From: Mya arenaria
Lineage: Eukaryota
DNA: 64,000 nt
Direction: 5' to 3'
Assembly: GCF_026914265.1 (NCBI RefSeq)
Contig: NC_069133.1
Span: 48,673,355 to 48,737,354, forward strand
The position numbers were made by a program, and so were the translations under genes. Shown here piece after piece: positions 37,953-62,869 of this stretch; within the stretch, counting starts at the first letter, position 1, and each line of letters opens with the position of its first letter. A model generated the notes under the pieces. That model was not told where the DNA came from. It saw only the letters and a list, made by a program, of their open reading frames with translations, and ran no database searches.

Positions 37953-40249
37953 TATATCCAGACGACTGCTACATCATCAGTATATACGATAAATTCTTCC
38001 ATAGATACATCCCAGTAGGAGAAGAAACATTTCATATCAAAATTATTGCAAATCCTGTCAAGATAATAGTTATAATGGAACACTGAAAACTCTTGGACAA
38101 GCCCAGCAATATACATCTAGGCCACAAACCTGCTTAAAGGCACACTGATCAAGGGAAATAACGCCAAAATACAACACACATTTCACAAATGAAAAACAAA
38201 TCCGTTTGGCAAGTCTAAACCAATCCACTAAACACCTTTAGGAAGTATGCTTAACGTACAAGTATGTTAAAGGTATAGTATGTGTCCATGTTACTGCTAA
38301 GTAATACATGTGTTGACTGTAGGGTACAAGCGTACGTGATTCTTCTAAACCTATCAAAGGGGTCTCAGGGTGATTCGTTCTTCTTTTTCTTTTATGTCCG
38401 ACCCGAGATGTAATCGCCCAAACGACACGAACAGTGTCCAAGAACATTGTTTTGGGGATGAAATCCACGCTACCTAACATCCGAGGGGACAGAGAACTAC
38501 ACGAGAACGAAATGGTGGATGGTAAAAGAACGATGCGTGCATGATTTACAGTGAAAATATTTTTTGATATTGTAAACAATTCTACTTCCGGTTCCCGATA
38601 TAAGGGTTTTTTATGCCAGTTACGCGTTCCGAATCGACTAGATTCTATCCTGGGAATAAACGCACAAAGACGCCAAGTACATTTTTAAGTGAATTCTTAA
38701 ACTCTGCAAACACTCTACAAAATACTTTCTTATATAACTCGTGTACATGTATAACTCTATCACATCAATGAACACCGTTTATGTAAGATATTGTCATTCA
38801 ATGTCATGATTTATACTTTGTTATAGGATTTTGTTTCTTATTCTTATACCGATAACGTCGCCTTCGTTGGCCTACGATAGCAAATGTTCGGAATGGTTCT
38901 CAAAACTATTTCATTTGCGAAACAAGGCCAAACGTATTAACAGAGTTGTGTTCAATCCTTTATTTATACATACACGTAAAGCACATAATTTTATATAAAC
39001 AGCATTTGAAACAATATTCCTAGGATGATGCGACAATGTCCCAATTACCTAATTTATCTAACTTCAGCAATAGAATGTTCAACACGCGTCCGATATCGCC
39101 TGGTATACGTACTCGACTTCGCACTTTTGCTTCCTTGCAGCTGTGTTGAGTCTATGAGTGTTCACAGATTGGGTAGATTGCATCGCTAAGGAGACTGCGC
39201 TCTTTGGGAAAATGAAGCAATAAACCAACTATATTTTCATTTAATATAGGAGAACCTCTGGTGTTTCCGTTTGCGTTTCAACAGACAATAAATATTGGCA
39301 TGGACATTAACCCACACACTCTGTCACCAGTTCAAGATGATTTGTTAATATATAATTTATTGTCTTCTCAAGGTATAAACCCATTACTTTTACCTAGTAG
39401 TTGAAGGTATTTATCCCACAATCGAATATGATCGACATTATGTCCCATAACACTTGTACGTTGGTTTATCACGAGTAGGTTATAAACGACTGAGTTATTG
39501 TCTGCACGCAACCTCATCTGGGCGTCACCGGCGACAACAGAAATATCATGTGTCGAAATTTTGAACGACAAAAACAACTGATATGACCTAAATGTATTGC
39601 AGTACTTTGGCATATGTAACTATCAATCATCGACATCCAAATAGGATAGGGGTAAGCGAAAAATAGCTTATTTCAATATATCGTTTAACAATCGAAGGTA
39701 CGGAAATATTGGATCATATGTAAAGGGTTGTTCGAAAACACATTTTGCTTGTTTCGTTTATGAAACTCGTAACAATTATGCCGCATTTTGACGTTCTTAT
39801 GTAACTTGTATAAATGTCAGTCGTATGAAATTGATTGACTTGCATTTTCTTTGTGAAACATCCCATTGTTTTACAAATGACGATCTTGCCTATATGCGTT
39901 TGAAAATTAAATGGCAATCTTTCAAATTTTTATTGGCTAAGTTGATTGCATAGTTTTCATATTCGGAATATTAAAAAAATTGCTTGTCTTTAGAATAATG
40001 TTCTTTTGACTTTACAGTACATTTAACGCTGGTTGTTCATTTCAAACGATAAAAGTACTCTTTTTTTACAATTTTGCCGAATAATTCTAAATATAATAAT
40101 TATCATTTAACTCACAAAACTTTTTTGCATTAAAATATTTAACACTTTGAATCCTGGTTATTCTTTTTCACGCCTTCTTATCTACAAGGGGAAGTAAATT
40201 AATACATATTTAAAACCATGGTCCTGATTATAAGTTAGCACTCAACCTT

Positions 40250-41260
40250 TTTAAGAAAAGTATTCATCCCTCCATTTTGTAACAAAAATATTTGGAAAAG
40301 ATGTTTTTATTGAGTGGCGATGCGAAATCGTCTTCAAAGTTCGATCCTAGCTGATGTTGCACATGTCTCGCGGCATAACCCAGAAAATGTATAATAATAG
40401 AACAGTACGGCAAATTAAATAGGGTGTTTTAATGTTACATACACTGTTGTAAGAAGCAACATAGCGCTGCAATGAAACGCTTGCATCATTTATGTTCTAT
40501 TCTGATCAGTTTTAATAAGCATTGAACATCAGACATATAAATCTAGAATTTTGCGACATAACAGACATTTTTTAGATAAAACATCTGGAATTATAACAGT
40601 TACAGTTTACTGAAGCTATAGATGCCAATAAAATTAGTACAATTAATTTCATAAACGTCTTCTGCAGACATCTATTAAATATTATAAAGCCTCTAAAACA
40701 ATTAGTGGGAGTTATTGTAGCCCTCTGGTACCGCGCCCTTTACGCTAAGCCGTTCAATCGTAAAACAACCACGTCTGAGTGATGATACAGGTTTTATTAT
40801 TAGCAATCATTTATGTCTTAGTTGTCAATTTATTCTATATATTTATATCATTTGTTCGATTAAACGAGAGCAAAGCTAACTCTCAGATCTTAACCAGGCA
40901 TCAAGTCGGTCCGTAGACCTAACGATGAAACCCAATTACAATACCTCAGATTTTAACCACTTTGCAGAATATAACCCAGACTTAGATTGACTGACTGACT
41001 CAAAACTTTATTGATAACTTACTAACCAACTATCAAGGTCTAGATAAGTGTCTTTATACTTCCCAATTGATCCAAATTGCAGTTGACCATTCAAAAGTGT
41101 TTCTCGATAGTAAAACGACTTTATGTGATGCCTTTATCCTCACCTGAAAATAATCAAAGGATTTTACTGGTTATCACCACAAACTGGAGCTTGTCAACCA
41201 ATTGTTTTTATGGACGTAAATCTAGCTAGGTTAAACATTTTCAATCGTAAAGTGGTCATG
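40250..41260 (+). repeat. Interspersed repeat of ~1 kb. A second copy lies at 56140-57150 and a partial copy at 55060-55560.
   Basis: Collinear similarity, e.g. gatgcgagatcgtcttcaaagttcgatcctag..., ttaaccactttgcagaatataacccagact and gattttactggttatc(a/g)ccacaaa. Confidence 0.75.
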
Positions 41261-42790: not shown

Positions 42791-44983
42791 ACAGGGTTCG
42801 CCGCCCTCCGCCATTTTGTTTTCCTGTTGACAAAGAGTCTCGGTTATACATACTCAGGAATGAAAGTTTATTCTCCAGGGACGTAGAAAAAAGGCAAACA
42901 ACGATATATTTAAGAAATATTTTTTTACAATAGAATTTAAAGAAAATATTTTTTTTTTCCTTTATGTCTAAAAAAAGATAAGGGTCGGCGAGAAAAAAAT
43001 AGCGTCGGTCGGGTTACCGGAAACAGGTATTTTTTTTGGCCTCAGGTTCATTAACAATATCACTAAATGCGTCGTTTATATAAAAGTTCATAATGAACTA
43101 ATGAGTGCTAATATAATCCTTTCTTGATGTCCATCTCGTATCTGAGAGAATAGTGAGAGTCTGTCCTTTTGAAGCATACTGAAAATTGACATATTCGTTT
43201 TCCTCCTCACACTCTGATGAGTCGGCTAAAAGGTCCGCCACTGCACTTTTAAATGACTTGTGTCGTTTGCGAGGTTGTGAAAAAAGAAAGTTAGTTGTTG
43301 AAATTTGTTCATAAAAATGCGAATCGATGGCACCTGGGTGCATGATGTGATAACTACTAGATTTAATCAATGACTATTAACTTGTTTAATGTATTTAGCA
43401 TGCAGATAAAAGTCAGTAATCCGAGTCTGATCGCCACTTACTTGGCCACTCATTGGCGATGCACCATCAAACATTTTCCCTCGACAATCGTTAGGTCTAG
43501 GTACAATTGTTGTTGACTGTGGCGATGTAAACTTCGTAATCTTTGGTGTTCTTTTCAGATGTCAGGAAATAAATTCATCATATGTGCTTATCCATTCCTT
43601 AAAGAACTTATAATTGCCGTTCTCGCGGTTTAGGTCTTTTAACAATCTCCCTCTGAAAGGAATTCCACGTGATGAATGTTTTATAATAGTTTTGATTATA
43701 TCCATAAGAACATGTCTGTGTTCGCTTATTTTAAAACGCGCGTCAACTGAGTGTTAAACAAGCGTTCTTTACACTTAGCAACTCCAGATATTTGTATTGA
43801 TAAGTTTATACATGCCGCCTATATTTTAGCATATCTGAAATGGAAAATGCAAAAATTAATTAATTAAATTAGTATATATTGTTGTCTAGGATATTACATA
43901 TCTAGAACATTTGAAATTTATGCGGACTCGTTTGAACAATACGGAGTCCTATTCTATGAATAGAGCGTGTCGTCAGTACTCGAGCAAAAAGGCCTTGCTG
44001 TATTGTTTGATACAATAAGTCCCGGCAGTGCTAAATTTTCTGTATCTACGGCATAACTCATAATTAAATGTGTCATTGTAGTCGTTCCTCGAATTCAGAA
44101 GTCGATTTTATTAGTTTTCATATCATTAGCTATTCTTATTTATTTTATGTGTTTTTTTTTCGCTCTCCAAATTGGCGGTGTGCGTCAGTGTGGCTACGGC
44201 GCTGTCATGTCGAGGAACCGTCTACTGATATTGAAAACCAACAACAACTGTAAAACAAATTGACGGAACGATATGACTGCTTCACTAATTGTATGGCATA
44301 GTCGTTAAGAACATACTATTCTACAAAAAGGGGAAACGATGCTATTTTTGAAAATATATTGATTAATCAACTATTAAAGGCTGGTATAAAGAATAGCATG
44401 TAATGATGAATTTGTACAAGAAATAGTTCTTTAGTAAGTATTAATCATTAAGATAACACACGATATGATTGCACCTGCAGTAAATGAACACAGTGAAACA
44501 TCCTGAAAGTCTATTTTTAAGGTCATACATAATTGAGTTTGAACACTGCTTGTCCTAGTGGTTTGTATACATGTTAATTTCTAGAGGTTGCGTACAGAAC
44601 TTTCTATCCTTGCGATAAGTAAAGGTAGGGTGTGAGCTCTTGAGATTCAAATTAAAGTCATATCATTGGAGTCTATGTAAACGTATCATAGATTTATAAC
44701 AAGAGGCACAAAGAACGACGCCAAAGTTCAGTTACTTCTCACTTCACCCATTGTCAAGTGAAGTAAGGAGAAATAATTCCAAATTTGTTGACTTATCATT
44801 AATTGTACAATATTTTTTTCACTTTCAAATCGAGCGGTAGTCATTGTTACAAATCAATTCTAGCTAATGAAAAGAAGCGATGATTTTTGTTTTATATATT
44901 TGAATCATAAGATAGCCACGACACGTTACAACACAATAAAAGCTACATGGACAAGAACTTTTGTCATAAATTTAGATATAAAC

Positions 44984-45640
44984 CCTGTTGTTTTTTCTCA
45001 TTTATTTTGAATATAGTTATTGTAATAACTGAAAAGCAATCTGAAACACATTATAAATCTGATATAGATTTAAACGTTGTTGTTTTTTCTCATTTATTTT
45101 GAATATAGTTATTGTAATAACTGAAAAACAATCTCAAACACAATATAAATCTGATATAGATAAAAACGTTGTTGTTTTTTCTCATTTATTTTGAATATAG
45201 TTATTGTAATAACTGAAAAACGATCTCAAACACATTATAAATCTGATATAGATATAAACGTTGTTGTTTTTTCTCATTTATTTTGAATATAGTTATTGTA
45301 ATAACTGAAAAACAATCTCAAACACATTATAAATCTGATATAAATAAAAACGTTGTTGTTTTTTCTCATTTATTTTGAATATAGTTATTGTAATAACTGA
45401 AAAACAATCTCAAACACATTATAATTCTGATATAGATGTAAACGTTGTTGTTTTTTCTCATTTATTTTGAATATAGTTATTGTAATAACTGAAAAGCAAT
45501 CTCAAACACATTATAAATCTGATATAGATATAAACGTTGTTGTTTTTTTCTCATTTATTTTGAATATAGTTATTGTAATAACAGAAAAACAATCTCAAAC
45601 ACATTATAAATCTGATATAGATATAAACGCTGTTCAGAGG
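44984..45640. repeat. Tandem repeat, 92-bp unit x ~7.
   Basis: gttgttgttttttctcatttattttgaatatagttattgtaataactgaaaaacaatctcaaacacattataaatctgatatagatataaac is repeated with point differences. Confidence 0.9.
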
Positions 45641-46136
45641 CACAAGGTAAGGGCCTTAACGACACTGTTACAGAAGAACAACCGTACAAGCAGACGACAA
45701 ACCCATTCAAATAGCATTATAAATAGATGATGGGATTACCGCCTTGAAACGGGCCGTGAAACACACTGGAGCACATGTGTATCACTGGGGATTCTAACTA
45801 GTTTACATGCGGATAACCACACACATGTTTCCACATTTATCATCGGAGTCAGCATTAACTTGAAAGCAATAAAAAAAAATAATAACATATAAACTTTTCA
45901 GTTACTACAAGTACTTAACGACTGAATGATTCAAATCGGAGAAACAATGCTTATTTTATAAAAGGTAACATAAAGGCATTCAAAGACATCTTTCTGACAT
46001 AGATTGTCCTAACAAACTCAAAATTAAAACATTACTGTAATGGTGAATACATCATCGTACAAACCAGGAAGAAAAACATATATAAATATATAATTAAACA
46101 AAAATAACATAATATCTAATGTTCTTTGATATATCA

Positions 46137-49100
46137 AGACGAAATGAACATACGGATAAGGCGGCATCGGGTGACAGAAACGGTCTTAAGGATAAGGAAA
46201 CGGTATTTGTCCCAGAATCGACAAATGTATAAAGTGTATGACCTAATGACATGAATGACCTACACACAGAATTTGCATTTTGGTCCATTTCATATAGTTT
46301 TGTGGTATTCGTCCGAAAGAGTGCTCTTTAAAATTTAATTTACAGAACACACACTTGCATTCAAAAGAAAATGTACTGTAAAATATAGTATATATACTGT
46401 AAGTATTTTTAAAGGGGCCAAAAATCTTGAAACGTTCCGAATGAAATTGTCTTTTGACTTGGTAATTTTGTAGCCAAAAAGTCAATTGAAGTTACTTTTT
46501 TATATAATATACTTCTTCCTTGAGACGATATAATCAATAAGCAGCAATACACTAGTCATTTCGTAGTCTCAAATAGTCTGAAAAAACCCCAATTCATTAT
46601 TCAATTTTGCCGAAAAAACTTTTTTCATTTGACGGCAAATATGGATATCGAACAACTTCTGATAAAATATCTCCACGTAAAATGTGCAAACTTCTTAACA
46701 CATCAAAACTTGTAGCACGGAATATACGTTTAACATTTTCAACAGATTGTTTCTACAGTTTAAAATTATCAAATACAAAAACGTTTTCATTGTTGGCCTT
46801 CCCCACCGAAGTGTACTGCTGCAGGTCATCTGATCACCATGCATTTTGCACAACAGTAATGAGGCATATTGTCATTTATGATTCAGCTCACAATTACTCT
46901 TTAATGTGAATTCATTCAACACTATGGAATAACATTTAAGTAGCACTCTAGTTCATGCAACATCATCCGAACATTAATTGCATATTTGTTATAAACAATA
47001 ATTAGCGAAGAAGAAGCTGTGATAATAGTAGCATAAATAAATTGCAAGAAGAAGATATCTTTTAAACCTGATATATATGACAAAAATCGGTTAGCAAACA
47101 CATACGTGAATACCGTTGCAAACATTCTATGGAATACGAATCGAATACCATAGATTTCTATGAAAATGCTTACAATCATTTTTTTCCAAATAAATCGCCA
47201 CAAAATCTATGCCATCTTTTATATTTAACACATACCTGAAAGGCAAAAAACATGTAATTAGTCAACGTTCAATTTTATATCTTAATCTTAAGTAAATGAT
47301 CTAAGTTTCTAAAGTAATTGATCGGACAAGACAACGTTTTGGTAATTTCTATCCTAAAGGGCGATAATTCAAGAGTGACTTAAGCAATATAGCTGAGATA
47401 CAATGCCAATTCACATTCTAACCAAATTGAATGATGTTAAGTTACTTATCGGAAAGCATACTTGATCCCGAATACCAACCCGTCCGTCGCAGATGAAACT
47501 ATGATACGTCCCGATATGTGAACGGACGTATTAAAAATCTACGCTCAATATACAGTGTATGTCATTCAAACTTAAATATCATTCTATTTTGCTAATGGTT
47601 GAAGGGCAAAACACACCGATTCTAATATGAGTAGTCAGTGTAACATTCCTTTTTTTCTTTTAGTACGCAATAGATTAAATCATGACATCTCAAAACATTT
47701 GCTACTTTCCATTTTCATATTTTTTGGAACTGAATGGTTTGTGATGTAAAAAAAGTGCTGGACATGCTGAATATATATTTGTGTTTATATGTTTACCCCC
47801 ATTGTTTGTTGTAACCCTAAAGAGGATGTGGCCACGTTTCTTAATACATATTGGCTACTACCAACCAATTTGTTTTTCTTATAAAATGTTACATTTTTCT
47901 AACGCTGTTTAACATTTAAAACTGTAGTAAAATTTGTCCAATATACAGTACTGAGGTGTGAAATTCTCGGAATCAGTGTTATTTCGCCTGTAGATGATTA
48001 ATTTACTATTGAATACATATGAGATCAATGTTGACGTCTTTAAATGAAAATGAATATAAAATGAAACGTAAATGGAATAGATATATAAATAGTTAATCAA
48101 ATTCATCTCCCTTAATTAAAGTGATTTTCGCAATTCTTCTTTCATGTCTTAAAACAAAACAAAATATATAGAGGATATTTGTTTATTTCAGTGTAAGATC
48201 GTATTTTATTTCACGAGTGTCATAAAAAAATATATTTTCACGAGTGGCGAAGCCACGAGTGAAAATGTAGTTTTTTTTATGATCACGAGTGAAATTAAAT
48301 ACGATCTTACACTGAAATAAACAAATTTTCTGTTTCTTTTATGCTTATTTTCGGAGTTTTATTTGTTTTTTATTTATTTCTGAATTACCCCCTTTTTTGA
48401 AAAGGGTGGGCTTTACGCCGCTACCCGTGGGGCGCCCCTCATGCATAATTATAGCTGTCAACTTTTCGACTTTCGGTTTGCTGAGAAATAGTTCTCTGCT
48501 ATTCATTCTTATGGCTTAATATTCGCTCGTTTTTTATTGCAAAGCTTTATGAACAGTAAACAATGACGTATTATTAGTGCACATATGTTCCAAAAATAAT
48601 GAAAACACATTTTATTTTAAGATGGACATGAAAACATAATCAAATTACTACGCTGCTATTTAAAGAATGAAAATTTGGAAGGTCAAATGTGTTAGCAAAA
48701 CAAATGTGGATACTCATTGGATTTTAACCATTTTTCTTAGTTTAAGACTGCATGTACGCGTGTTTTTATAGTAAGTTAATATTCAGTCATCTTACTGTCA
48801 GAGACCAGTCTGTTTCGCTTTAAAATGTTTGTTTTCCAGATAAAGAGTAAATGCCACGCTAGTTTGTTGACACATTTTGTTGTGTGGGTGGGGTAAAAAT
48901 ATCGAATCTATCTGTAAATTGTTGTGTGAATTCTCCAGGAAGCTCAATTTACGTACTCCAATGGTTAACAGTTCAAAATACATTTGAACGATGATATAAA
49001 ATTGTATTTATGTTCGAACAGTTGTTTTTGTCTGTAATTTGTTTGGTATGAAAGCAAATGTTCGAACATTCAGCTTCAAAGATCAGTAAAATGTTTGATA

Positions 49101-52100
49101 AACGGGATAACCGGTAATAAACGGTAAGTTGTTAATTTCCAATTATATATTTATCTAAATTTATAAAACATTTCTTTTATATATTTTTTAACATTTTTTG
49201 ACATAATTTATTGAAGTCCAGTAGGCAAGTACATGTAACAACAAAGGAATTTAAAGTAGTTCTGAAAGTTGATATTTTCACTCCTTATTTTGCAGTGAAA
49301 ATACCAAATTGATATTTTCACTGTAGTTATTTCACTGGTTAAAACCCATATTTCATCGAAAAGCATGAAAGAAATAATTATCGTTTCTTGTTTCTTGACG
49401 TTTATTTAGTAGTTATTGTAATTTAAGGCAGGTTTATGTATAACAAATTCAAGTGTTTTTGTTTACAATTAAACATTGTTCATCGAAATGCACTCTGTGA
49501 CCTATGAACTACTTTCATTCACCTTAATTCAAATTCTAGAAGGAAAATTTTCATTTACTCAGTTTTTTATTCTTAAACAATTACAAATATGCTGTCTTTT
49601 ACCCTTTTAAAAACGTTTTTGAAATTAGAGGCAGATATGGATCAACTGATGCTTATATAGCGAGTACTCTTAGTTGTTACTTTCTAGCTAAGGCAACACA
49701 TTTATATTCTTGGTTCAGATTTATTTTATTAACGTATGAAAATATATTTTCATCGTGCCGGGAATATTAGGGATCATTTGATAGAAACTAATTATTGTTT
49801 AATCAACGTTTAATCAACAGTGCTTGATCTTCAATTTGAAATATTATCTACTTTACATTATACCTCTTAATTCTAATGTTCAATGCTTTTTTTTTTGGTT
49901 TGCTCTGACTATTTTAATGATCTGCAATATTTTCATTATGAAAGGCACGGAGCTTCGAAAAACATTTCGGCATCTCCTGTTATTAGGCTTTTCAATTAGA
50001 TCTAAGACTGTACGTATTTTATCAATCGCTTGAAAATATAATTTAGTCTGCGACAGTGACTGTGTTTTATACCTATAAAAGATACACAGTGCATTACCGT
50101 TTAAACGACGTACCAACGCCGGAATGAAGAAATACCGGCTTATGTCGTCTTTATACTGCCATGGCCAGCATAATGGTCACTTGGCTGGATTGCACGGTTC
50201 AAACTTGTTGGACTGTAATATTGTTTTTATATTTATATCATCACAGTAGGGTAATGACCAATTAAGATTTTAAATACTATCTGAGAATATCCGTGTTCGT
50301 TGAACAAAGAATGGTTCATGCCTTCAAACTTTCCATTTTTACAAAGCCGAATAACTGCTTCTTTTATTCAGACGTCTGCACTACAAATCGTTAACCCTAC
50401 ATCAAGTCAATATATATGATTATACATATATCTTGCACACAGAGGTTACCAAATATTTGTTGAAACATTTTTAAAATGCATATGTTCCAATTATTCCTGA
50501 ATACTTTATCCTTAAATATAAATGGTTATTACTGACGGTATATTTACAAATTGTAATTTTCAAGACGAAATGAACATACGGATAAGGCGGCATCGGGTGA
50601 CAGAAACGGTCTTAAGGATAAGGAAACGGTATTTGTCCCAGAATCGACAAATGTATAAAGTGTATGACCTAATGACATGAATGACCTACACACAGAATTT
50701 GCATTTTGGTCCATTTCATATAGTTTTGTGGTATTCGTCCGAAAGAGTGCTCTTTAAAATTTAATTTACAGAACACACACTTGCATTCAAAAGAAAATGT
50801 ACTGTAAAATATAGTATATATACTGTAAGTATTTTTAAAGGGGCCAAAAATCTTGAAACGTTCCGAATGAAATTGTCTTTTGACTTGGTAATTTTGTAGC
50901 CAAAAAGTCAATTGAAGTTACTTTTTTATATAATATACTTCTTCCTTGAGACGATATAATCAATAAGCAGCAATACACTAGTCATTTCGTAGTCTCAAAT
51001 AGTCTGAAAAAACCCCAATTCATTATTCAATTTTGCCGAAAAAACTTTTTTCATTTGACGGCAAATATGGATATCGAACAACTTCTGATAAAATATCTCC
51101 ACGTAAAATGTGCAAACTTCTTAACACATCAAAACTTGTAGCACGGAATATACGTTTAACATTTTCAACAGATTGTTTCTACAGTTTAAAATTATCAAAT
51201 ACAAAAACGTTTTCATTGTTGGCCTTCCCCACCGAAGTGTACTGCTGCAGGTCATCTGATCACCATGCATTTTGCACAACAGTAATGAGGCATATTGTCA
51301 TTTATGATTCAGCTCACAATTACTCTTTAATGTGAATTCATTCAACACTATGGAATAACATTTAAGTAGCACTCTAGTTCATGCAACATCATCCGAACAT
51401 TAATTGCATATTTGTTATAAACAATAATTAGCGAAGAAGAAGCTGTGATAATAGTAGCATAAATACATTGCAAGAAGAAGATATCTTTTAAACCTGATAT
51501 ATATGACAAAAATCGGTTAGCAAACACATACGTGAATACCGTTGCAAACATTCTATGGAATACGAATCGAATACCATAGATTTCTATGAAAATGCTTACA
51601 ATCATTTTTTTCCAAATAAATCGCCACAAAATCTATGCCATCTTTTATATTTAACACATACCTGAAAGGCAAAAAACATGTAATTAGTCAACGTTCAATT
51701 TTATATCTTAATCTTAAGTAAATGATCTAAGTTTCTAAAGTAATTGATCGGACAAGACAACGTTTTGGTAATTTCTATCCTAAAGGGCGATAATTCAAGA
51801 GTGACTTAAGCAATATAGCTGAGATACAATGCCAATTCACATTCTAACCAAATTGAATGATGTTAAGTTACTTATCGGAAAGCATACTTGATCCCGAATA
51901 CCAACCCGTCCGTCGCAGATGAAACTATGATACGTCCCGATATGTGAACGGACGTATTAAAAATCTACGCTCAATATACAGTGTATGTCATTCAAACTTA
52001 AATATCATTCTATTTTGCTAATGGTTGAAGGGCAAAACACACCGATTCTAATATGAGTAGTCAGTGTAACATTCCTTTTTTTCTTTTAGTACGCAATAGA

Positions 52101-54988
52101 TTAAATCATGACATCTCAAAACATTTGCTACTTTCCATTTTCATATTTTTTGGAACTGAATGGTTTGTGATGTAAAAAAAGTGCTGGACATGCTGAATAT
52201 ATATTTGTGTTTATATGTTTACCCCCATTGTTTGTTGTAACCCTAAAGAGGATGTGGCCACGTTTCTTAATACATATTGGCTACTACCAACCAATTTGTT
52301 TTTCTTATAAAATGTTACATTTTTCTAACGCTGTTTAACATTTAAAACTGTAGTAAAATTTGTCCAATATACAGTACTGAGGTGTGAAATTCTCGGAATC
52401 AGTGTTATTTCGCCTGTAGATGATTAATTTACTATTGAATACATATGAGATCAATGTTGACGTCTTTAAATGAAAATGAATATAAAATGAAACGTAAATG
52501 GAATAGATATATAAATAGTTAATCAAATTCATCTCCCTTAATTAAAGTGATTTTCGCAATTCTTCTTTCATGTCTTAAAACAAAACAAAATATATAGAGG
52601 ATATTTGTTTATTTCAGTGTAAGATCGTATTTTATTTCACGAGTGTCATAAAAAAATATATTTTCACGAGTGGCGAAGCCACGAGTGAAAATGTAGTTTT
52701 TTTTATGATCACGAGTGAAATTAAATACGATCTTACACTGAAATAAACAATTTTTCTGTTTCTTTAATGCTTATTTTCGGAGTTTTATTTGTTTTTTATT
52801 TATTTCTGAATTACCCCCTTTTTTGAAAAGGGTGGGCTTTACGCCGCTACCCGTGGGGCGCCCCTCATGCATAATTATAGCTGTCAACTTTTCGACTTTC
52901 GGTTTGCTGAGAAATAGTTCTCTGCTATTCATTCTTATGGCTTAATATTCGCTCGTTTTTTATTGCAAAGCTTTATGAACAGTAAACAATGACGTATTAT
53001 TAGTGCACATATGTTCCAAAAATAATGAAAACACATTTTATTTTAAGATGGACATGAAAACATAATCAAATTACTACGCTGCTATTTAAAGAATGAAAAT
53101 TTGGAAGGTCAAATGTGTTAGCAAAACAAATGTGGATACTCATTGGATTTTAACCATTTTTCTTAGTTTAAGACTGCATGTACGCGTGTTTTTATAGTAA
53201 GTTAATATTCAGTCATCTTACTGTCAGAGACCAGTCTGTTTCGCTTTAAAATGTTTGTTTTCCAGATAAAGAGTAAATGCCACGCTAGTTTGTTGACACA
53301 TTTTGTTGTGTGGGTGGGGTAAAAATATCGAATCTATCTGTAAATTGTTGTGTGAATTCTCCAGGAAGCTCAATTTACGTACTCCAATGGTTAACAGTTC
53401 AAAATACATTTGAACGATGATATAAAATTGTATTTATGTTCGAACAGTTGTTTTTGTCTGTAATTTGTTTGGTATGAAAGCAAATGTTCGAACATTCAGC
53501 TTCAAAGATCAGTAAAATGTTTGATAAACGGGATAACCGGTAATAAACGGTAAGTTGTTAATTTCCAATTATATATTTATCTAAATTTATAAAACATTTC
53601 TTTTATATATTTTTTAACATTTTTTGACATAATTTATTGAAGTCCAGTAGGCAAGTACATGTAACAACAAAGGAATTTAAAGTAGTTCTGAAAGTTGATA
53701 TTTTCACTCCTTATTTTGCAGTGAAAATACCAAATTGATATTTTCACTGTAGTTATTTCACTGGTTAAAACCCATATTTCATCGAAAAGCATGAAAGAAA
53801 TAATTATCGTTTCTTGTTTCTTGACGTTTATTTAGTAGTTATTGTAATTTAAGGCAGGTTTATGTATAACAAATTCAAGTGTTTTTGTTTACAATTAAAC
53901 ATTGTTCATCGAAATGCACTCTGTGACCTATGAACTACTTTCATTCACCTTAATTCAAATTCTAGAAGGAAAATTTTCATTTACTCAGTTTTTTATTCTT
54001 AAACAATTACAAATATGCTGTCTTTTACCCTTTTAAAAACGTTTTTGAAATTAGAGGCAGATATGGATCAACTGATGCTTATATAGCGAGTACTCTTAGT
54101 TGTTACTTTCTAGCTAAGGCAACACATTTATATTCTTGGTTCAGATTTATTTTATTAACGTATGAAAATATATTTTCATCGTGCCGGGAATATTAGGGAT
54201 CATTTGATAGAAACTAATTATTGTTTAATCAACGTTTAATCAACAGTGCTTGATCTTCAATTTGAAATATTATCTACTTTACATTATACCTCTTAATTCT
54301 AATGTTCAATGCTTTTTTTTTTGGTTTGCTCTGACTATTTTAATGATCTGCAATATTTTCATTATGAAAGGCACGGAGCTTCGAAAAACATTTCGGCATC
54401 TCCTGTTATTAGGCTTTTCAATTAGATCTAAGACTGTACGTATTTTATCAATCGCTTGAAAATATAATTTAGTCTGCGACAGTGACTGTGTTTTATACCT
54501 ATAAAAGATACACAGTGCATTACCGTTTAAACGACGTACCAACGCCGGAATGAAGAAATACCGGCTTATGTCGTCTTTATACTGCCATGGCCAGCATAAT
54601 GGTCACTTGGCTGGATTGCACGGTTCAAACTTGTTGGACTGTAATATTGTTTTTATATTTATATCATCACAGTAGGGTAATGACCAATTAAGATTTTAAA
54701 TACTATCTGAGAATATCCTTGTTCGTTGAACAAAGAATGGTTCATGCCTTCAAACTTTCCATTTTTACAAAGCCGAATAACTGCTTCTTTTATTCAGACG
54801 TCTGCACTACAAATCGTTAACCCTACATCAAGTCAATATATATGATTATACATATATCTTGCACACAGAGGTTACCAAATATTTGTTGAAACATTTTTAA
54901 AATGCATATGTTCCAATTATTCCTGAATACTTTATCCTTAAATATAAATGGTTATTACTGACGGTATATTTACAAATTGTAATTTGTA
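46137..54988. repeat. Direct tandem duplication of a ~4426-bp segment: unit 1 at 46137-50562 and unit 2 at 50563-54988, ~99.9% identical.
   Basis: Every six-frame ORF in unit 1 reappears at +4426 bp with the same translation, e.g. 46243-46485 equals 50669-50911. I saw only a handful of single-base differences, at about 47024/51450, 48324/52748 and 50298/54722. Confidence 0.9.
48175..48323. mobile_element. Foldback/MITE-like element of ~150 bp with 38-bp terminal inverted repeats. It is present again at 52599-52747 in the duplicate unit.
   Basis: atttgtttatttcagtgtaagatcgtattttatttcac ... gtgaaattaaatacgatcttacactgaaataaacaaat. Inside it tcacgagtg occurs three times. Confidence 0.65.
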
Positions 54989-55059
54989 AAAAGAAAGTAA
55001 TCATAAAAAGCTATGTGCATGACAATCAATTAGCACTCGACATATTTAAGATATGTCTA

Positions 55060-55560
55060 TATCCCTCCAGTTAAATTTTGTAACAATACATTTGGAAAGA
55101 AAACATGTACTTTGAGTGAGGATGCGAGATCGTCTTTAAAGTTCGATCCTAGCTTATCTTTCACAGGTCTCCCGGCAAAACCAAGAAAACATATAATAGA
55201 ACAGGAGGGCAAATTAAAGAGGGTGTCTTAATGCTGCATACTCTGTTGTAATAAAACTTTGAAACGTATCTGTTCTGTTCTGTAATGTTTATATAAGCAC
55301 GAAACTGCATTCATATCAATCTGGGGAAAGGGACATTATTACGATTAATACGTCTGAAATTCTTACAAAAATAATTTGCCGAAGCTATAGTTCCCAATTA
55401 AATAAATTATATTTATTTCGTTAACGTCTTCTACAGACATCAATTTAATAGTATAAAGCCATTCAAACAATTATGAGAGTTTTTGTAGCACTCTGGCACC
55501 AATCCGCGTCCTATACACTAAGCCTTTCAATCGTAAAGTCAAAACAGCCACATCCGATGA
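55060..55560 (+). repeat. Partial copy of the 40250/56140 repeat family, fused at 55560-55700 to a segment similar to 50040-50200 and 54470-54620.
   Basis: gaggatgcgagatcgtctttaaagttcgatcctagc... is followed by gtctgtcacactgactgtgttttatacctgaaaatgatacacaatgtattaccgttt..., matching tagtctgcgacagtgactgtgttttatacctataaaagatacacagtgcattaccgttt. Confidence 0.6.
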
Positions 55561-56139
55561 TACAAGACAATTTAGTCTGTCACACTGACTGTGTTTTATA
55601 CCTGAAAATGATACACAATGTATTACCGTTTGAAGGACGTACCAGCACCGGAATGAAGAAATACCGGCTTATATCGCCACTCTACAGCCGTGACCGGATT
55701 GAACGGTTCAAACTAGTTGCACTGTAATATTTCTATGACCATTAAATTTAAATTTCAAATTCTAACCCAGTAAAGCTTTGTTCGTTGTAAAATAAATCAT
55801 TAACGCCTTCAAACTTTCGAGTTTTATAAAGCCGTCTTTTAAAACTGCTCCTTTTAATCAGACGTTTGCACTACAAACTGTTTACCCTACGTCAATATAT
55901 TTCATATGTCATACACACAGAAGTAATCAAATAATAATTTATCTTCAAAATTGATAAGGTCCAATAATTCCTGAATGTTTTTATCTTAAGTACTGATGGT
56001 TATGATTAACGATATATATTTTCAAAAATATCGGCGTTTTCTACTTAGCTAAAAGAAAGTATATATATTATACCATGTGCTTGACTACTAAGTATTAGTT
56101 TATCACTCGACATTTTAAGTTAAGTCGATATCCTCCAGT

Positions 56140-57150
56140 CAAAGTTTGTTACAATGCAATTGGTAAAAGTCATGTTCATAGAAGAAGAAGATAGTTTATT
56201 CATGGAAATATTGAGTGGGGATGCGAGATCGTCTTCAAAGTTTGATCCTAGGTTATGTTTCACAGGTTTCGGAAAACGTATACTAAAACATTATGGCAAA
56301 TTAAAGAGGGTGTCTAATGCAGCATACTCTGCTGTAAGAAGCAAAACGCTGCAATAAAAAGTTTGCAGCATTTCTTGTTCTGCTCTGTTATGTTTATATA
56401 AGCATGAAATATCATTAATATAAATCTGGAAATTTGCGACAAAAGGGACATTTTATGATTAAACCGTCTGAAATTCTTGCCAAAACAATTTACAAAAGCT
56501 ATTACTGAGTAGTATTTATTGTTTAAACGTCATCTACAAACATCCTTTAAATAGCATAAAGCCGCTAAAACAATAATGAGAGTTCTTGTAGCACTCTGGC
56601 ACCAACCCGCGCTCCATGCCAAATAATTTATATGAAAAACTACAGAATGAAGTTCAATCGTATATTTATAAAGTCAAAACAGCGACGTCCGGTGCTACAA
56701 GTTTTATTGTTAGCAATTATTTATTTTGTCAGTTGTCAATTAATTGTTCGATTAAATGAGAGCAAATCTTACTCTAAGATCTTAACCAGACCTTAACTCG
56801 GTATGTAGACCTTAATATTAAACCCAATTACAGTATCGCAGATTTTAACCACTTTGCAGAATATAACCCAGACTGAGATTGACCGACTGACTAAAAACTG
56901 TCTTATAAATTTGATAAAATGTGACCAAATACCAAGCTCCAAATAAGTTGTTTATACTTCATAGTTGACCCTTATTGCAGTTGACCATTCAGAAGTGTTT
57001 CCTAACGCCCCTCAATAGTTCAACGACATCATGTGATACCTTTAACCTAACGTGTCAATGGATTTTACTGGTTATCGCCACAAAAAGGAGCTAGTCAATC
57101 AATAATTTCAGTGACGTAAATTTTAGCCTGGCCAAATACTTTCGACAGCT
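56140..57150 (+). repeat. Third copy of the ~1-kb interspersed repeat family.
   Basis: Collinear with 40250-41260. Confidence 0.7.
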
Positions 57151-57989
57151 TTTAAGTAAACAAGGTAATTCATGTATTTTCTGGACATACCCTAAATGAA
57201 ACATTAGCGGTTGGCTTTGACCGATGTCAATCTATCTCGATAGTTCCAAGTAGTATATGAGTTTAGCAACAGGCAGGTCCTTTGATAATTGCTATTCAAG
57301 TGTAAGGACCAACATAAGCATATGTGAAAGCAATTGACTGTTCCATTTATTGTCAGAATATCTAATCGGCACATGCCGGTAACGCTTATGAAGCGCCTAT
57401 GAGAATATAACGCAATGGCATTTTGACCACTTAGTAGCTTAAGATAGGAATGATGACCTAAATAGAGATGTTTCAATATTGGCGAGGGTCATTGTGTTAC
57501 GTTCTTAAATAAATATAAAAGTTACCGTAGTTTTTAACGAGAATCCATTGAGGGCCATATTGTTGCACATGTAAAATCCTTAGTAAAGAAAAATACGCGA
57601 GTTGAACATATAGGGGCAGATTGTAAGGAGGCTGACATGTTTCAATATTTAAGATGGACCGAGGTCCATTCTCCTTAGGGGGCTGACTGGCCGGTCCTTA
57701 TAATGCCATATGGCCCGAAGTGGTGTGTAAATATTTCTTATATAATACCGAACATTTTATATTACTATTCAATATGTTTAAGGCGCTTCAGATGTGTCTT
57801 ATTGAACAAAACTATTAATGTTTACTTGCGACTATTTTCCGCCGTTGTGAAAATTGCAAGCCGCACTTACCAGTAGTATGACGTCACCGGTCCAAATTAC
57901 ATTTTTCGCTAGGTCCGGACTGGCCAAAAATATGATATGGACCGCTGACGTCATAAAACTGGATTTTTATTTGAATACAGTGATATACG

Positions 57990-60472
57990 GACCGATCGAC
58001 TTCGACAATTCATCACGACATTGAATATTTCCTATATAAGATCGAATGTCGAGCTAGAATTCCGTCCAGCTCGACATTGCAGCTCAACATTGAAGATTTG
58101 CTATATAATATCGAATGTCGAGCTAGAATTCCGTCCAGCTCGACATTGCAGCTCAACATTGAAGATTTGCTATATAATATCGAATGTCGAGCTAGAATTC
58201 TGTCCAGCTCGACATTCCGGCACGACATTGAATATTTCCTATATAATATCGAATGTCGAGCTAGAATTCCGTCCAGCTCGACATTGAAGATTTGCCATAT
58301 AATATCGAATTCTAGCTAGAATTCCGTCAACTCGACAATTAATCACGACATTGAATATTTCCTATATAATATCGAATCTCGTGCTAGAATTCCGTCCAGC
58401 TCGATATTGCAGCTCGACATTGAAGATTTGCTATAAAATATCGAATGTCGAGCTAGAATTTTGTCCAGCTCGACATTGCAGCACGACATTGAAGATTTGC
58501 TATATAATATCGAATGTCGAGCTAGAATTTCGTCCAGCTCGACATTGCAGCTCGACATTGAAGATTTGCTATATGATATCGAATGTCGAGCTAGAATTCC
58601 GTCCAGCTCGACATTGTAGCTCGGCATTGAAGTTTTGCTATATTATAATGAATGTCGAGCTAGAATTCTGTCCAGCTCGACATTGCAGCTCGACATTGAA
58701 GATTTGCTATATAATATCGAATGTCGAGCTAGAATTTCGTCCAGCTCGACATTGCAGCTCGACATTGAAGATTTGCTATATAATATCGAATGTCGAGCTA
58801 GAATTTTGTCCAGCTCGACATTGCAGCTCGACATTGAAGATTTGCTATATGATATCGAATGTCGAGCTAGAATTCCGTCCAGCTCGACATTGTAGCTCGG
58901 CATTGAAGTTTTGCTATATTATAATGAATGTCGAGCTAGAATTCTGTCCAGCTCGACGTTCCAGGTCGATATTAAATATCTGCCATATAATATCGATTTT
59001 CGAGCTAGAATTCTGTCCAGGTCGACGTTCCAGGTCGACATTGAAGATTTACTATATCATATCGAATGTCGAGCTAGAATTCCGTCCAGGTCGACAATTC
59101 ATCACGACATTGAATATTTCCTATATAATATCGAATGTCGAGCTAGAATTCCGTCCAGCTCGACATTGCAGCTCGACATTGAATATTTGCTATATAATAT
59201 CGAATGTCGAGCTAGAATTCTGTCCAGCTCGACATTGCAGGTCGACATTGAAGATTTGCTATATAATATCGAATGTCGAGCTAGAATTCCGTCCAGCTCG
59301 ACATTGAAGATTTGCCATATAATATCGAAAATGTAGAGCTAGAATTCCGTCAACTCGACAATTAATCACGACATTGAATATTTCCTATATAATATCGAAT
59401 CTCTTGCTAGAATTCCACCCAGCTCGACATTGCAGCTTGACATTGAAGATTTGCTATAAAATATCATATGTCGAGCTAGAATTTTGTCCAGCTCGACATT
59501 GCAGCTCGACATTGAAGATTTGCTTTATAATATCGAATGTCGAGCTAGAATTCCGTCCAGCTCGACATTGCAGCTCGACATTGAAGATTTGCTATATAAT
59601 ATCGAAGGCCGAGTTAGAATTTTGTCCAGCTCGACATTTCAGCTCGACATTGAAGATTTGCTTTATAATATCGAATTTCGAGCTAGAATTCCGTCCAGCT
59701 CGACAATTCATCACGACATTGAATATTTCCTATATAATATCGAATGTCGAGCTAGAATTCCGTCCAGCTCGACATTGCAGCTCGACATTGAAGATTTGCT
59801 ATATAATATCGAATGTCTATATATATTTTTGTCCAGCTCGACATTGCCGCTCGATATTGAAGATTTGCTATATAATATTTATTTAATAATATTTTATTTA
59901 TAAACATTATTACAATTGTCAAAATATTTACATACATGTATATAGAAAAGTTTGAAATAAATGTTATCAAAGTTGTATGCAAAAGGGTCGAGCCACAAGT
60001 TATCAACAACATTAGTTACGGCCCTCCCCTTGCTATATAATATCGAATGTGGAGCTAGAATTCCGTCCAGCTCGACATTGCAGCCCGACATTGAAGATTT
60101 GCCATATAATATTGAATGTAGAGCTAGAATTCCGTCAACTCGACAATTAATCACGACATTGAATATTTCCTATATAATATCGAATCTCGAGCTAGAATTC
60201 CGTCCAGCTCGACATTGCAGCTCGACATTGAAGATTTGCTATAAAATATCGAATGTCGAGCTAGAATTTTGTCCAGCTCGACATTGCAGCTCGACATTGA
60301 AGATTTGCTATATAATATCGAAGGCCGAGCTAGAACTTCGTCCAGCTCGACATTACAGCTCGACATTGAAGATTTGCTATATGATATCGAATGTCGAGCT
60401 AGAATTCCGTCCAGCTCGACATTGCAGCTCGACATTGAAGATTTCCGATATAATATCGAATGTCGATTGTCG
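57990..60472. repeat. Satellite DNA array with a 69-bp monomer (~33 copies, several variant subtypes). A ~165-bp AT-rich insertion interrupts it at 59870-60035.
   Basis: Monomer atcgaatgtcgagctagaattccgtccagctcgacattgcagctcgacattgaagatttgctatataat. It contains an EcoRI site (GAATTC) and the 9-bp dyad tgtcgagct/agctcgaca. The 69 = 3x23 periodicity produces long ORFs in several frames on both strands. Confidence 0.95.
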
Positions 60473-61276
60473 ATTGCCGATGGCTGAGCCAACTTCACAC
60501 ACATCTAATAAAATCCTTAAATTATTTGATAATTATTTCCAACTATTTACAATAATGAATGCAATACATCAATTTATTCCGGTTGTGAAACTAAAATAGT
60601 CTAGTTTAATATTGTTATTCAGCTTGAAATCCACCACATCAGCAGCCATTTGTATAAACCTTTCAGGGGTTCAAAAAAAGTAAATGATCTTAGTCAGACA
60701 TTTGATGACACTAATGTTACAAACAAGTCGTGACCGGTTTTGTTAAATCTTTAAGTCCTAGAGGAATTCAATGTTTACTTAGTGAGAATGCTGTGTCGTC
60801 GAGTGTGAATGTATTCCCCATAGTAAAATGATTTTGCCTTGTCAACACCATGCCGCAATATTTACACCTCAACTTCTATTCCTTAAATGAACTGCCTTTC
60901 GGCATCGATTGATGAACGCAACATCTTCGGATGTGTTCGGATCGCAATTCATAGCATAACAATATACATGAAAACTATTGATCTTGTTATTGGCTGTATT
61001 GTGTCAGCAGGTCCAGTAAAATATAGATCAACATTTTAGAAAATATATTTTTAAATATATTGGTACCAGAAGTGTTTCAATTTTTACGTTTTAAAGTGAT
61101 TTCAAGTGGTTGATCTTTTCCCGCGTTATTGTGACGTCATTTGAAAAAAATGTTTCCGGTTATAGTCGGGTCGTTCTATTTACAGAATGGGTAAGAACGG
61201 ATTACTGAAAGGCTTTCTTAAAGGAAATGAAGTAGTTCTTTAACAATTCTTGAATGAAATAATGAACCCTTGGTGT

Positions 61277-61430
61277 AAATATAAGGAATGAATTGCGGGG
61301 TTGATGTCATTATCGGAGATATGAACGCAATTGGGTTGGTAAAAGTACGCGTGGAGTCCTTCGGACTTCACACACATTGACCAACCCAATTGCGTTCATA
61401 CCCCGATAATGACATCAACCCCACAATTCA
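61277..61430. repeat. Near-perfect long inverted repeat (hairpin) with ~58-bp arms and a ~38-bp spacer that itself holds a small stem (agtcc-ttcgg-gact).
   Basis: aaggaatgaattgcggggttgatgtcattatcggagatatgaacgcaattgggttggt ... accaacccaattgcgttcataccccgataatgacatcaaccccacaattcattcctt. Confidence 0.85.
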
Positions 61431-62869
61431 TTCCTTAATTAACATTAAATTGTTTAATATGGTGTTTTTAGGTTGTATATGAGTAATCAAAAAACAATTC
61501 CCCAAGAGAAAGATTGAAGATTAACCTGCTGCGCGGTGTAAAATGGGTAATAGAGAAATGTTAAACACCTCGCGTACGTGTTTACTAGTGATGAAACGAT
61601 TATCGAGTACAATAGATAAATCGTCGCTGACAATGCTATGTCGGCGACAATGGATAGTGGTTGTCCAAAATCGATGTCGCTAATGTTACTTCAGGTAACT
61701 ACGTATTTTTATGTTTTGTGGTAAAAGTCGAGTAAATGTCAAATTTTCTTTCCGGTAAATTCTCGTTGAGTGTATTTTAACAAATAGGCCACTCTCTAAC
61801 ACAAAATGCGGTGAATGTAAACACTTTTCTTTAAAACTTTCCCAAAATTACAAATTGCTTTAATTGTTTATATATCATTTAAAACCTTCTTCAATAACCT
61901 GCCTATATGAAATTGGTCCGGTCTTACCTGCAAATACCGGGGATCCCAGCTCGATGCATTCTATTTCTGAAATCTTTTTAGGTGTCGTTTGTAATTAACT
62001 AATTTCCTTTTTTGTGAAAGTTTTATAAAATTAAAATATTCTAATGAAATGTTCAATATAACAGGTTATTGAATGTTAAGCTGGTTCACAAATATTTGAT
62101 ATTTTTTACATGGATAAAATGCTGAGATAACTTACATGATGAGGTGTGCATCATTTTTGCAATTGATATGCAATTTTTAAGTATGTGTTGTGTTGTTACG
62201 TTTTTCGTTAAGTTATTCAAGACAGAAAAAGGTTATGGAAATTGACTTACTGTTGCAAAAAATCATCACTAAAGCATCAAACATACTGATTCCAGGTTAC
62301 ACCATTTAAACGATCATTATGATACTATGTATAAAGAGTGTATTTTTTACTGATATTATGAACTTTCGATTAATGTCAAGCACTAGTGTTTACACCTAAA
62401 CGTGAACATTGAAGGCTATGTTTAGAAGTAATTTGTTTAATGGCTCTATAAACTTGCACTTGTACGCCTTACGAGACTCAAAACAATCCTTCCTTAAACG
62501 TTTGTACATGCCCCTTTAAACGTGCACATTTAACACAAGAGCGATCACCCGAAAACCAACATCCACCTCATTTGGACCTCATCTGTGTCTAACAGGTGAC
62601 TGTTTAAATTACTAACACTAAGAAAATAACAGAATGAATATATGTACCAGTCTCATATTTGATTGATAATACAATCTGCCTTAAAATTGTTGCCATACTA
62701 CTATTTTGTTATGTTTTATGCGTAATGTTTAATTTATTATTTGATTGATGTCATTTCCAGATAGATGGGCAAAAAGAGTTTTATTTTACCACTGTAGAAT
62801 ATGGGTTAGGACCCAAGTTATTATTGGGATACTACTTTAAATATGTTTTACAAAAGATGTTGAATACTA

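Follow-up and report, generated by a model that had tools for sequence, protein, structure and literature searches.

The satellitome of the oyster Crassostrea gigas comprises 52 families, among them standalone arrays and families with short units, e.g., CgiSat24 with 66 bp (PMC8268682). Most satellite-like arrays of this species are carried by Helitron/Helentron elements and hold 9-48 monomers, up to a maximum of 232 (PMC8268682; PMC7492417); Cg170 arrays inside such elements have ~6 monomers on average (PMC8268682). Elements of the Cg_HINE / DINE-1 type have subterminal inverted repeats of 11-12 bp in both flanks, accompanied on the left by an adjacent IR; a microsatellite separates the left flank from the repeats, the last of which is followed by a palindrome (PMC7492417). 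The conserved right flank of the oyster HINE spans ~60 bp including the palindrome, and multi-copy conserved flanks, insertion at TT, and the lack of a target-site duplication are further traits of these elements (PMC7492417). For Tribolium castaneum, euchromatic tandem-repeat families with satellite features and units of mostly ~170 bp are described (PMC4675708).

Within a 64-kb window of Mya arenaria DNA (the whole stretch analyzed, with position 1 as its first letter), a 69-bp unit was found to form one array, very likely a short, interstitial one made up of a non-coding tandem repeat that resembles satellite DNA. As in the satDNA of C. gigas, non-coding head-to-tail monomers in tens of copies are interspersed in gene-bearing DNA and form no large heterochromatic blocks, the array is moderately AT-rich (58% AT), and several unrelated arrays lie close together, with at least five short arrays in the window, this one included, reported by Tandem Repeats Finder (TRF). 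Differences concern the host, which belongs to the order Myida, and the 69-bp unit, which is absent from the 52 oyster families as judged by unit length. With the T. castaneum families, the locus shares satellite-like arrays in euchromatic arms near genes; it differs from them in host (an insect), in the predominant unit length of ~170 bp, and in sequence, which is unrelated. The monomer sequence appeared in no paper of the searchable literature, in which no satellite study or catalogue of M. arenaria was found either. The 69-bp family is unreported there, but repeats of this kind are familiar from bivalves. This adds a candidate satellite family for M. arenaria, a species studied for its transmissible leukaemia, with little significance outside annotation.

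The array extends from 57996 to 60466 and consists of ~33.4 head-to-tail copies of the unit with the consensus GCTAGAATTCCGTCCAGCTCGACATTGCAGCTCGACATTGAAGATTTGCTATATAATATCGAATGTCGA, corresponding to 2306 bp after subtraction of an insertion by which it is divided into two parts.

57996-59878, unstranded: left part of the array, monomers m0-m27, the last of which is cut by the insertion (TRF periods 69/138/207; monomer table and alignment)
60030-60466, unstranded: right part of the array, the rest of the interrupted monomer followed by m29-m34 (TRF period 69, 6.3 copies, 88% matches; monomer table)

TRF, which had been proposed as a check when the repeat was read from the sequence alone, reported a period of 69 together with its multiples 138 and 207 at 58002-59878 and 60030-60466 (maximum score 2665). 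The spacing of the GCTAGAAT anchors was 69 bp, save for length variants of 55, 58, and 68 bp (-14, -11, and -1 bp) and one gap of 303 bp containing the insertion. GAATTC was counted 25 times in the array region, compared with 40 times in the whole window, and 24 of these sites fall in the monomer anchor GCTAGAATTC; monomers without it carry GAATTT or GAACTT in the anchor, and one monomer has no anchor at all. Period, anchor spacing, and GAATTC count bear out the 69-bp EcoRI-site tandem repeat recognized by the sequence-only reading. The 27 full-length monomers share a mean pairwise identity of 90.6%, i.e., a divergence of ~9%. A 44-nt core of the unit matched 18 times with up to three mismatches, every time within the array (zero matches in 100 shuffles). 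If the family should turn out to be abundant, the EcoRI site and the block variants described below might be used as markers in cytogenetics or population studies.

An 11-bp motif, AGCTCGACATT, occurs three times per unit, twice in direct and once in inverted orientation, and these three copies account for both the dyad around GAATTC and the internal direct repeat. The dyad has 11-bp arms (AATGTCGAGCT / AGCTCGACATT) around GAATTC with a loop of 12 nt, and the stem reached DNA fold z-scores of -3.4 and -3.9; the stem noted earlier is thus real, its length being 11 bp instead of 9 bp. Likewise, the internal direct repeat exists and is longer than given at first, namely 13 bp (CAGCTCGACATTG twice, seen as period-13 rows in TRF). 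Allowing up to one mismatch, 77 copies of the 11-bp motif were found in the window, all 77 of them inside the array, with a chance expectation of 0.68. Two monomers, m4 and m19, show a 13-bp gap exactly between the internal repeats in the monomer alignment.

58260-58314, unstranded: short monomer of 55 bp, with precisely one of the two 13-bp internal repeats missing (13-column gap between the direct-repeat copies in the monomer alignment)
59280-59337, unstranded: second short monomer of that kind, 58 bp (monomer alignment)

Since the unit spans 23 whole codons (69 = 3 x 23) and three of its six consensus frames happen to contain no stop, long ORFs run through the array in two forward frames and one reverse frame.

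58351-59307, forward strand: longest pseudo-ORF, 318 aa, without an ATG start (ORF scan), closed by a frame shift in the 58-bp monomer

The existence of ORFs of up to 318 aa on both strands, pointed out beforehand, was confirmed, and their proposed origin as artefacts of a stop-free 3 x 23 unit agrees with flat codon phases, random variant ratios, frame-breaking monomer lengths, and the lack of a credible homologue. Each open frame runs on as far as a point mutation that closes it or a monomer whose length three does not divide. At least three stop-free frames were present in 11.5% of shuffled units and in 15.9% of random genomic 69-mers. Variation was flat across the codon phases (35/32/32), and the ratios of synonymous, nonsynonymous, and stop changes among distinct variants in the three open frames (11:33:2, 11:34:1, and 8:34:4) match the random expectation in each of them (47:149:11, 47:149:11, and 48:146:13). 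The alternative that the array codes for a real protein built from tandem 23-residue units, which could invoke the ORFs of up to 318 aa and one match at E = 5.7e-42 from an exhaustive HMMER search of the open frames, is effectively refuted and retains next to no probability. This match, one of 24 weak ones, concerns an HSR/SAND/PHD protein (Sp100-like, vertebrate-type) with ~20% identity, sharing only P..CSS per unit; the protein has a 23-residue repeat of its own, so that the match is a coincidence of periodicity. The other top matches examined, to leucine-rich-repeat proteins, are unrelated and equally a coincidence of period-23 repeats. Among 5.8 billion protein clusters, no word-sharing homologues were obtained for the 318-aa frame or for the other two open frames (searched as a chimera), and no Pfam or Rfam family was assigned to the array up to threshold. 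Further points against a protein are the lack of codon-phase and synonymous bias, the monomer lengths that break the frame, the missing ATG of the longest ORF, and the simultaneous openness of three frames; of the hallmarks of a coding gene, i.e., purifying selection in one frame, frame-preserving lengths, and homologues, none was found. The array is non-coding and encodes nothing. It cleanly exemplifies how long ORFs arise on both strands when three divides the length of a tandem unit, and such ORFs should be masked by gene finders and in six-frame scans.

Having head-to-tail monomers of constant length and no coding function, the array shows two traits of satDNA. Every test run supported the initial view of a non-coding tandem repeat of satellite type. 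The term satellite holds in the sense of a satDNA-like tandem repeat; its classical sense of abundant, long, and centromeric or pericentromeric DNA is not supported by one 2.3-kb array. We regard the array as neutral repetitive DNA, whose existence calls for no cellular role.

The interruption of the array is bracketed by identical 14-mers, and excision of the inserted stretch together with one 14-mer restores an exact 69-bp monomer.

59865-59878, unstranded: left 14-bp copy of the target-site duplication, TTGCTATATAATAT
59879-60029, reverse strand: AT-rich inserted element of 151 bp, 26% GC
60030-60043, unstranded: right 14-bp copy of the target-site duplication, TTGCTATATAATAT

The AT-rich insertion of 165 bp reported from the sequence is therefore confirmed in size and composed of 151 bp plus the duplicated 14-mer. 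Because of this 14-bp target-site duplication, the insert is a mobile-element insertion and not mere AT-rich filler. Read on the reverse strand, it starts with GGGGAGGGCC and ends in an A-rich tail (...AAATAAAATATTATTAAATAA); it thereby resembles a SINE or a non-LTR retroposon truncated at its 5' end, and the 14 bp of TTGCTATATAATAT on each side lie in the range of ~7-20 bp typical for target-site duplications of retroposons. Further copies of the insert were not found in the 64-kb window, nor did it match the LINE located at 15692-19133 of the window.

Beyond the monomer level, the array contains ordered segments.

57996-58520, unstranded: block copy 1, a segment of ~7 monomers (identity of 95.6% with copy 2 and of 94.5% with copy 3; diagnostic variants in matching order)
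59085-59543, unstranded: block copy 2, higher-order segment (block comparison)
59694-60328, unstranded: block copy 3, higher-order segment carrying the 151-bp insertion (block comparison and sequence)
58521-59072, unstranded: two adjacent 4-monomer segments of 276 bp, 58521-58796 and 58797-59072 (257/276 identical)

The three blocks of ~7 monomers are 94.5-95.6% identical and have an ordered set of diagnostic variants in common. In block copy 1, variant A is followed by two canonical monomers and one extra, then by D (GCCATATAAT), the 68-bp monomer E, F (TATAAAAT), and G (GAATTTTG); block copy 3 carries a 9-bp replacement, TATATATAT, at 59818-59826. Self-identity of the array peaks at an offset of 1023, and the block spacing is irregular with 1023 bp and ~609 bp. 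Monomers m9 and m13 are identical. Variant monomers recurring every 4-5 units had been taken as a sign of higher-order structure. Such variants do exist, with the exact variant string ttccgtcaactcgacaattaatcacgacattgaatatttcc present three times (58322, 59345, and 60130), 15 and ~9 monomers apart and not 4-5; pooling all seven "CACGACATTGAATATTTCC" monomers results in spacings of 2-5 plus one of 11. Higher-order structure is indeed present, in the form of irregular segmental duplications, i.e., a 7-monomer block in three copies and a 4-monomer duplication, and not of a regular 4-5-unit repeat. Because these duplications are nested and one 13-bp repeat was lost in two monomers, we infer that out-of-register recombination, together with slippage during replication, enlarged and rearranged the array. 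The retroposon-like element of 151 bp later struck one block copy, thereby duplicating its 14-bp target.

Primate alpha satellite is similar in having ordered diagnostic variants in blocks that are closer to each other (~95% here) than average monomers (~91%). However, only three irregularly spaced block copies are present in M. arenaria, the array measures 2.3 kb compared with hundreds of kb, and a centromeric position has no support. Long satellite arrays are often under-assembled, and together with the dyad-symmetric tandem unit and the block structure this would allow the locus to be a marginal or outlying part of a classical higher-order-repeat satellite of the centromere or pericentromere, collapsed or truncated in the assembly. 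We consider this highly improbable, as only 2.3 kb lie between flanks that are both single-copy within the 64-kb window, the block spacing follows no fixed higher-order period, and the ~9% monomer divergence and the retroposon insertion speak against active homogenization; the long homogeneous arrays and fixed multi-monomer period of centromeric satellites were not observed. In addition, a GPCR gene is located at a distance of 21 kb from the array, and its two exons (31946-32359 and 36178-37068) are 99.3% and 97.6% identical to an M. arenaria protein. As its surroundings are unique, gene-bearing DNA, the locus is to be classed as a short, dispersed array rather than as a centromeric block. Scanning the window for Rfam families and tRNAs yielded nothing. 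Degenerate monomers adjoining the array were absent from the flanks, with a single 23-bp fragment found 245 bp upstream.

The immediate surroundings bear on a further explanation, according to which the array is the central tandem module of a non-autonomous mobile element (a Helentron/Helitron-derived HINE or a repeat-carrying MITE), with copies scattered genome-wide by transposition. It concerns origin and spread and is compatible with a non-coding repeat; we rate it as possible, though unlikely. It is favored by the predominance of Helitron/Helentron elements among the carriers of satellite-like arrays in C. gigas and by the presence of four or more further short tandem arrays in the window, and a palindrome, the single strong one in the two flanks, lies 33 bp upstream of the array.

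57870-57962, unstranded: imperfect palindrome of 93 bp, 43-nt arms 81% complementary, with TGACGTCA in each arm (DNA fold -25.6 kcal/mol, z = -6.9)

Its position near the array start could mean a transposon context, as HINEs carry their palindrome in the flank that follows the final repeat. At the opposite end, the 7-bp repeat (TGTCGAT)2 TGCCGAT at 60461-60483 directly abuts the array, in the place of the HINE microsatellite when read on the reverse strand; TRF reports no microsatellite there. With its palindrome near one end of the tandem array and its short, microsatellite-like repeat at the opposite end, the locus resembles the Cg_HINE / DINE-1 type. However, the palindrome fits the HINE position exclusively with a reverse-strand reading, and its 93 bp exceed the ~60 bp of the whole palindrome-containing conserved right flank of the oyster elements. 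A search for the 11-12-bp subterminal inverted repeats and the accompanying IR of HINEs, comparing 57000-57995 with 60467-61600, retrieved only isolated 10-11-mers at chance level within ~1 kb on each side, none of which adjoins the array or the palindrome, so that neither a subterminal pair nor an IR was found. Moreover, the flanks are unrepeated in the window, no transposon protein is encoded near the array, and its 34 monomers make it much longer than the Cg170 arrays in oyster Helitron/Helentron elements with their average of ~6. Membership in the Helentron/HINE group is not supported by these tests.

The preferred reading of a short, neutral satellite-DNA-like array also has to be weighed against a functional role. 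The ~100 copies of AGCTCGACATT within 2.3 kb, three per unit and in both orientations, might constitute a CpG-rich and perhaps unmethylated platform for protein binding or chromatin organization, with the array acting as a putative insulator, regulatory island, or source of small RNA. This is very unlikely in our assessment. Related sequence was present in none of the collections searched, i.e., JGI metagenomes, IMG/VR, and prokaryote genomes for an exact 32-mer of the unit with two degenerate positions, and JGI metagenomes for a two-anchor pattern one period apart. Furthermore, variation is evenly spread elsewhere in the unit. Taken more broadly, there is a small chance that the unit is cargo of an undescribed repeat-carrying mobile element of Myida, one terminus of which would be the TGACGTCA-bearing palindrome of 93 bp, or that the array is a germline-unmethylated platform whose dense AGCTCGACATT motifs (~100) are occupied by a sequence-specific factor; mobile-element cargo or a bound platform would make the array more than neutral repeat DNA. 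The CpG observed/expected ratio amounts to 1.65 in the array compared with 0.81 in the remaining window, and the unit's four TCGA CpGs hardly vary, with the fifth, the CCG CpG, being decayed in 10 of 27 monomers. This pattern could hint at methylation protection or motif constraint, and it is accounted for equally well by a young array, i.e., by recent amplification and homogenization.

The 69-bp unit is repeated head to tail in ~33 copies at window positions 57996-60466, an extent defined by its period and by the spacing of a conserved string around GAATTC (GCTAGAAT, the anchor). In Tandem Repeats Finder, the stretches 58002-59878 and 60030-60466 gave period 69 and its multiples 138 and 207 (scores up to 2665), and the tandem array proposed by a sequence-only reading of this region was borne out by this period and the anchor spacing. 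The array hosts 32 anchors, usually 69 bp apart; the exceptions are short monomers of 55 bp and of 58 bp, three monomers of 68 bp and an interval of 303 bp, the site of an insertion. Without the insertion, the array amounts to 2306 bp or 33.4 units. A 44-nt core yielded 18 matches at up to three mismatches, compared with none in 100 shuffles, and no match in the rest of the 64-kb window outside the array. The unit consensus is GCTAGAATTCCGTCCAGCTCGACATTGCAGCTCGACATTGAAGATTTGCTATATAATATCGAATGTCGA (GC 42%), with a mean pairwise identity of 90.6% among 27 full-length monomers.

An 11-bp motif, AGCTCGACATT, recurs three times within each unit, twice in direct and once in inverted orientation; at up to one mismatch, all 77 matches are located inside the array (chance expectation 0.68). 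The direct copies form a 13-bp internal repeat (CAGCTCGACATTG twice, recognized in the period-13 rows of Tandem Repeats Finder), while the inverted and a direct copy form an 11-bp stem (AATGTCGAGCT/AGCTCGACATT) with a 12-nt loop containing GAATTC. Both features had been described before and proved slightly longer than initially stated. Folded as single-stranded DNA, the unit was more stable than every one of 200 shuffled versions, with z scores of -3.4 on one strand and -3.9 on the other. The array region accounts for 25 of the 40 GAATTC sites in the window, 24 sites lying within the monomer anchor GCTAGAATTC; other monomers carry GAATTT or GAACTT instead, and one has lost the anchor entirely. 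Variation peaks at the two C positions of the CC in TTCCG, which read T in 8 and 10 of the 27 monomers, respectively. The CpG observed/expected ratio is 1.65 in the array (57996-60466) versus 0.81 in the remainder of the window. Of the five CpGs in a unit, four reside within TCGA and are almost invariant, while decay of the fifth (CCG) to TG is seen in 10 of the 27 monomers. This richness could reflect hypomethylation or constraint, or merely recent amplification, and is considered as a lead only.

Variant monomers had been suggested to recur every 4-5 units as a higher-order structure. Multi-monomer blocks do exist, but the three occurrences of the exact variant string (58322, 59345 and 60130) lie 15 and ~9 units apart rather than every 4-5. 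The blocks comprise ~7 monomers in the order A, two canonical, D, E, F, G, the letters denoting diagnostic variants:

57996-58520, block copy 1
59085-59543, block copy 2
59694-60328, block copy 3
58521-58796 and 58797-59072, duplicated 4-monomer segment (257/276 identical)
Monomer A, carrying CAATTCATCACGAC...AATATTTCC
Monomer D, carrying GCCATATAAT
Monomer E, a 68-bp variant
Monomer F, carrying TATAAAAT
Monomer G, carrying GAATTTTG

The three block copies are mutually 94.5-95.6% identical, above the monomer average, and array self-identity peaks at offset 1023. Monomer D of copies 1 and 2 lacks exactly one 13-bp internal repeat. The array is not a regular higher-order repeat; judging from this pattern, unequal exchange and slippage would have generated nested duplications, and the footprints are as expected for these processes.

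The AT-rich insertion noticed earlier was recovered as well, together with a duplicated 14-mer:

59879-60029, inserted segment (151 bp, 26% GC)
59865-59878 and 60030-60043, identical flanking 14-mers TTGCTATATAATAT

Once the insert and one 14-mer are taken out, the monomer is again exactly 69 bp long; on the minus strand, the insert has an A-rich tail at its end. Together, a target-site duplication of such size and an A-rich tail are the hallmark of target-primed reverse transcription by non-LTR retroelements; on the basis of these two features, we read the insert as a putative 5'-truncated LINE or SINE copy. It showed no match elsewhere in the window, nor to the near-intact non-LTR LINE at 15692-19133 (minus strand), whose two adjoining long ORFs (599 and 549 aa) encode Exo_endo_phos endonuclease and RVT_1 reverse transcriptase domains. 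As only one of three block copies carries the insert, the insertion is placed later than the block duplication. In the monomer just before it, nine anchor bases (GAGCTAGAA) are replaced by TATATATAT at 59818-59826 with unchanged length.

Long open frames of up to 318 aa, previously regarded as artefacts, do exist:

58351-59307, plus strand, longest ORF (318 aa, without ATG)

The consensus is stop-free in two plus-strand frames and one minus-strand frame. At least three stop-free frames were found in 11.5% of shuffled units and 15.9% of random 69-mers from the window, rendering three open frames unremarkable. Variation by codon phase is flat (35/32/32), and the synonymous : nonsynonymous : stop counts of distinct variants in the three frames (11:33:2, 11:34:1 and 8:34:4) show no synonymous bias relative to random mutation (47:149:11, 47:149:11 and 48:146:13). 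Monomers shortened by 14, 11 or 1 bp disrupt all frames. None of the three frames matched any of 5.8 billion protein clusters, Pfam gave matches below threshold only, and Rfam returned nothing. The artefact interpretation stands on the flat codon phase, the lack of synonymous bias, the frame-breaking lengths and the absence of a matching protein. An exhaustive HMMER search returned one strong-looking match (E = 5.7e-42) to an HSR/SAND/PHD protein, rejected as homologue: this protein has its own 23-residue repeat, with ~20% identity and solely P..CSS matched per unit. A leucine-rich-repeat protein was likewise rejected, and the HMMER matches examined are periodicity coincidences.

The window (GC ~30-39%) is animal DNA with the following further features:

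31946-32359 and 36178-37068, plus strand, two exons of a rhodopsin-family GPCR gene (intron ~3.8 kb)
40212-41221, 54466-55537 and 55569-57121, a ~1.1-1.5-kb dispersed element, present as three diverged copies (68-72% identity)

The GPCR exons match 'OX2R-like protein [Mya arenaria]' at 99.3% and 97.6% identity, which identifies the host as Mya arenaria or a very close relative. The array flanks are single-copy within the window and hold no sizeable ORFs; given these unique flanks and the gene-bearing context, the repeat at this locus is a short interstitial array rather than a centromeric block. Two dispersed-element copies lie in tandem just upstream, ending at 57121, 870 bp short of the array. 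Furthermore, a ~4.43-kb unit occurs twice head to tail at 46134-54996 (46134-50570 and 50560-54996; 99.82% identity, sharp boundaries, no ORF of at least 150 aa), owing either to segmental duplication in tandem of very recent date or to an artefact of assembly.

Oyster arrays of this kind mostly lie inside Helitron/Helentron-derived elements with defined flanks, namely subTIR, inverted repeat and microsatellite on the left and subTIR and palindrome on the right (PMC7492417; PMC8268682). The findings here are mixed, and an analogous origin as transposon cargo seems unlikely: a strong, imperfect 93-bp palindrome (57870-57962) does lie 33 bp upstream of the array and a short 7-bp repeat adjoins its other end, but no inverted-repeat pair above chance connects both flanks. 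The palindrome has 43-nt arms (81% complementary; DNA fold -25.6 kcal/mol, z = -6.9), both containing the CRE-like octamer TGACGTCA; it may represent the terminus of a transposon, or an element of the foldback or MITE-like type. A separate MITE-like structure is found at 61282-61437, ~800 bp downstream of the array; its 35-nt arms (TAAGGAATGAATTGCGGGGTTGATGTCATTATCGG and the reverse complement) are 97% complementary and separated by 86 nt. An isolated 23-bp fragment, AATATTTCTTATATAATACCGAA (57729-57751, 245 bp upstream), matches the 'variant' monomer type at 21/23 positions, a score equalled by 0 of 500 shuffles, and may be a relic or seed of the repeat.

The monomer sequence was not found in the searchable literature, nor was a satellite study of Mya arenaria; the oyster satellitome includes no 69-bp family, and metagenome, viral and prokaryote collections yielded no related DNA. 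For these reasons, the family may be undescribed. Short scattered satellite-like arrays are well documented in bivalve genomes (PMC8268682), and this array is one more case of that kind, confirming the initial observation and supporting its interpretation with corrections. Four unrelated tandem arrays occur in the same window:

581-951, 174 bp x 2.1
3604-4813, 145 bp x ~8.5 copies (93-95% matches)
25797-26197, 48 bp x 8.5 (72% matches)
44973-45634, 92 bp x 7.2 (95% matches)

Short satellite-like arrays appear to be plentiful in this genome, a pattern also reported for oysters.
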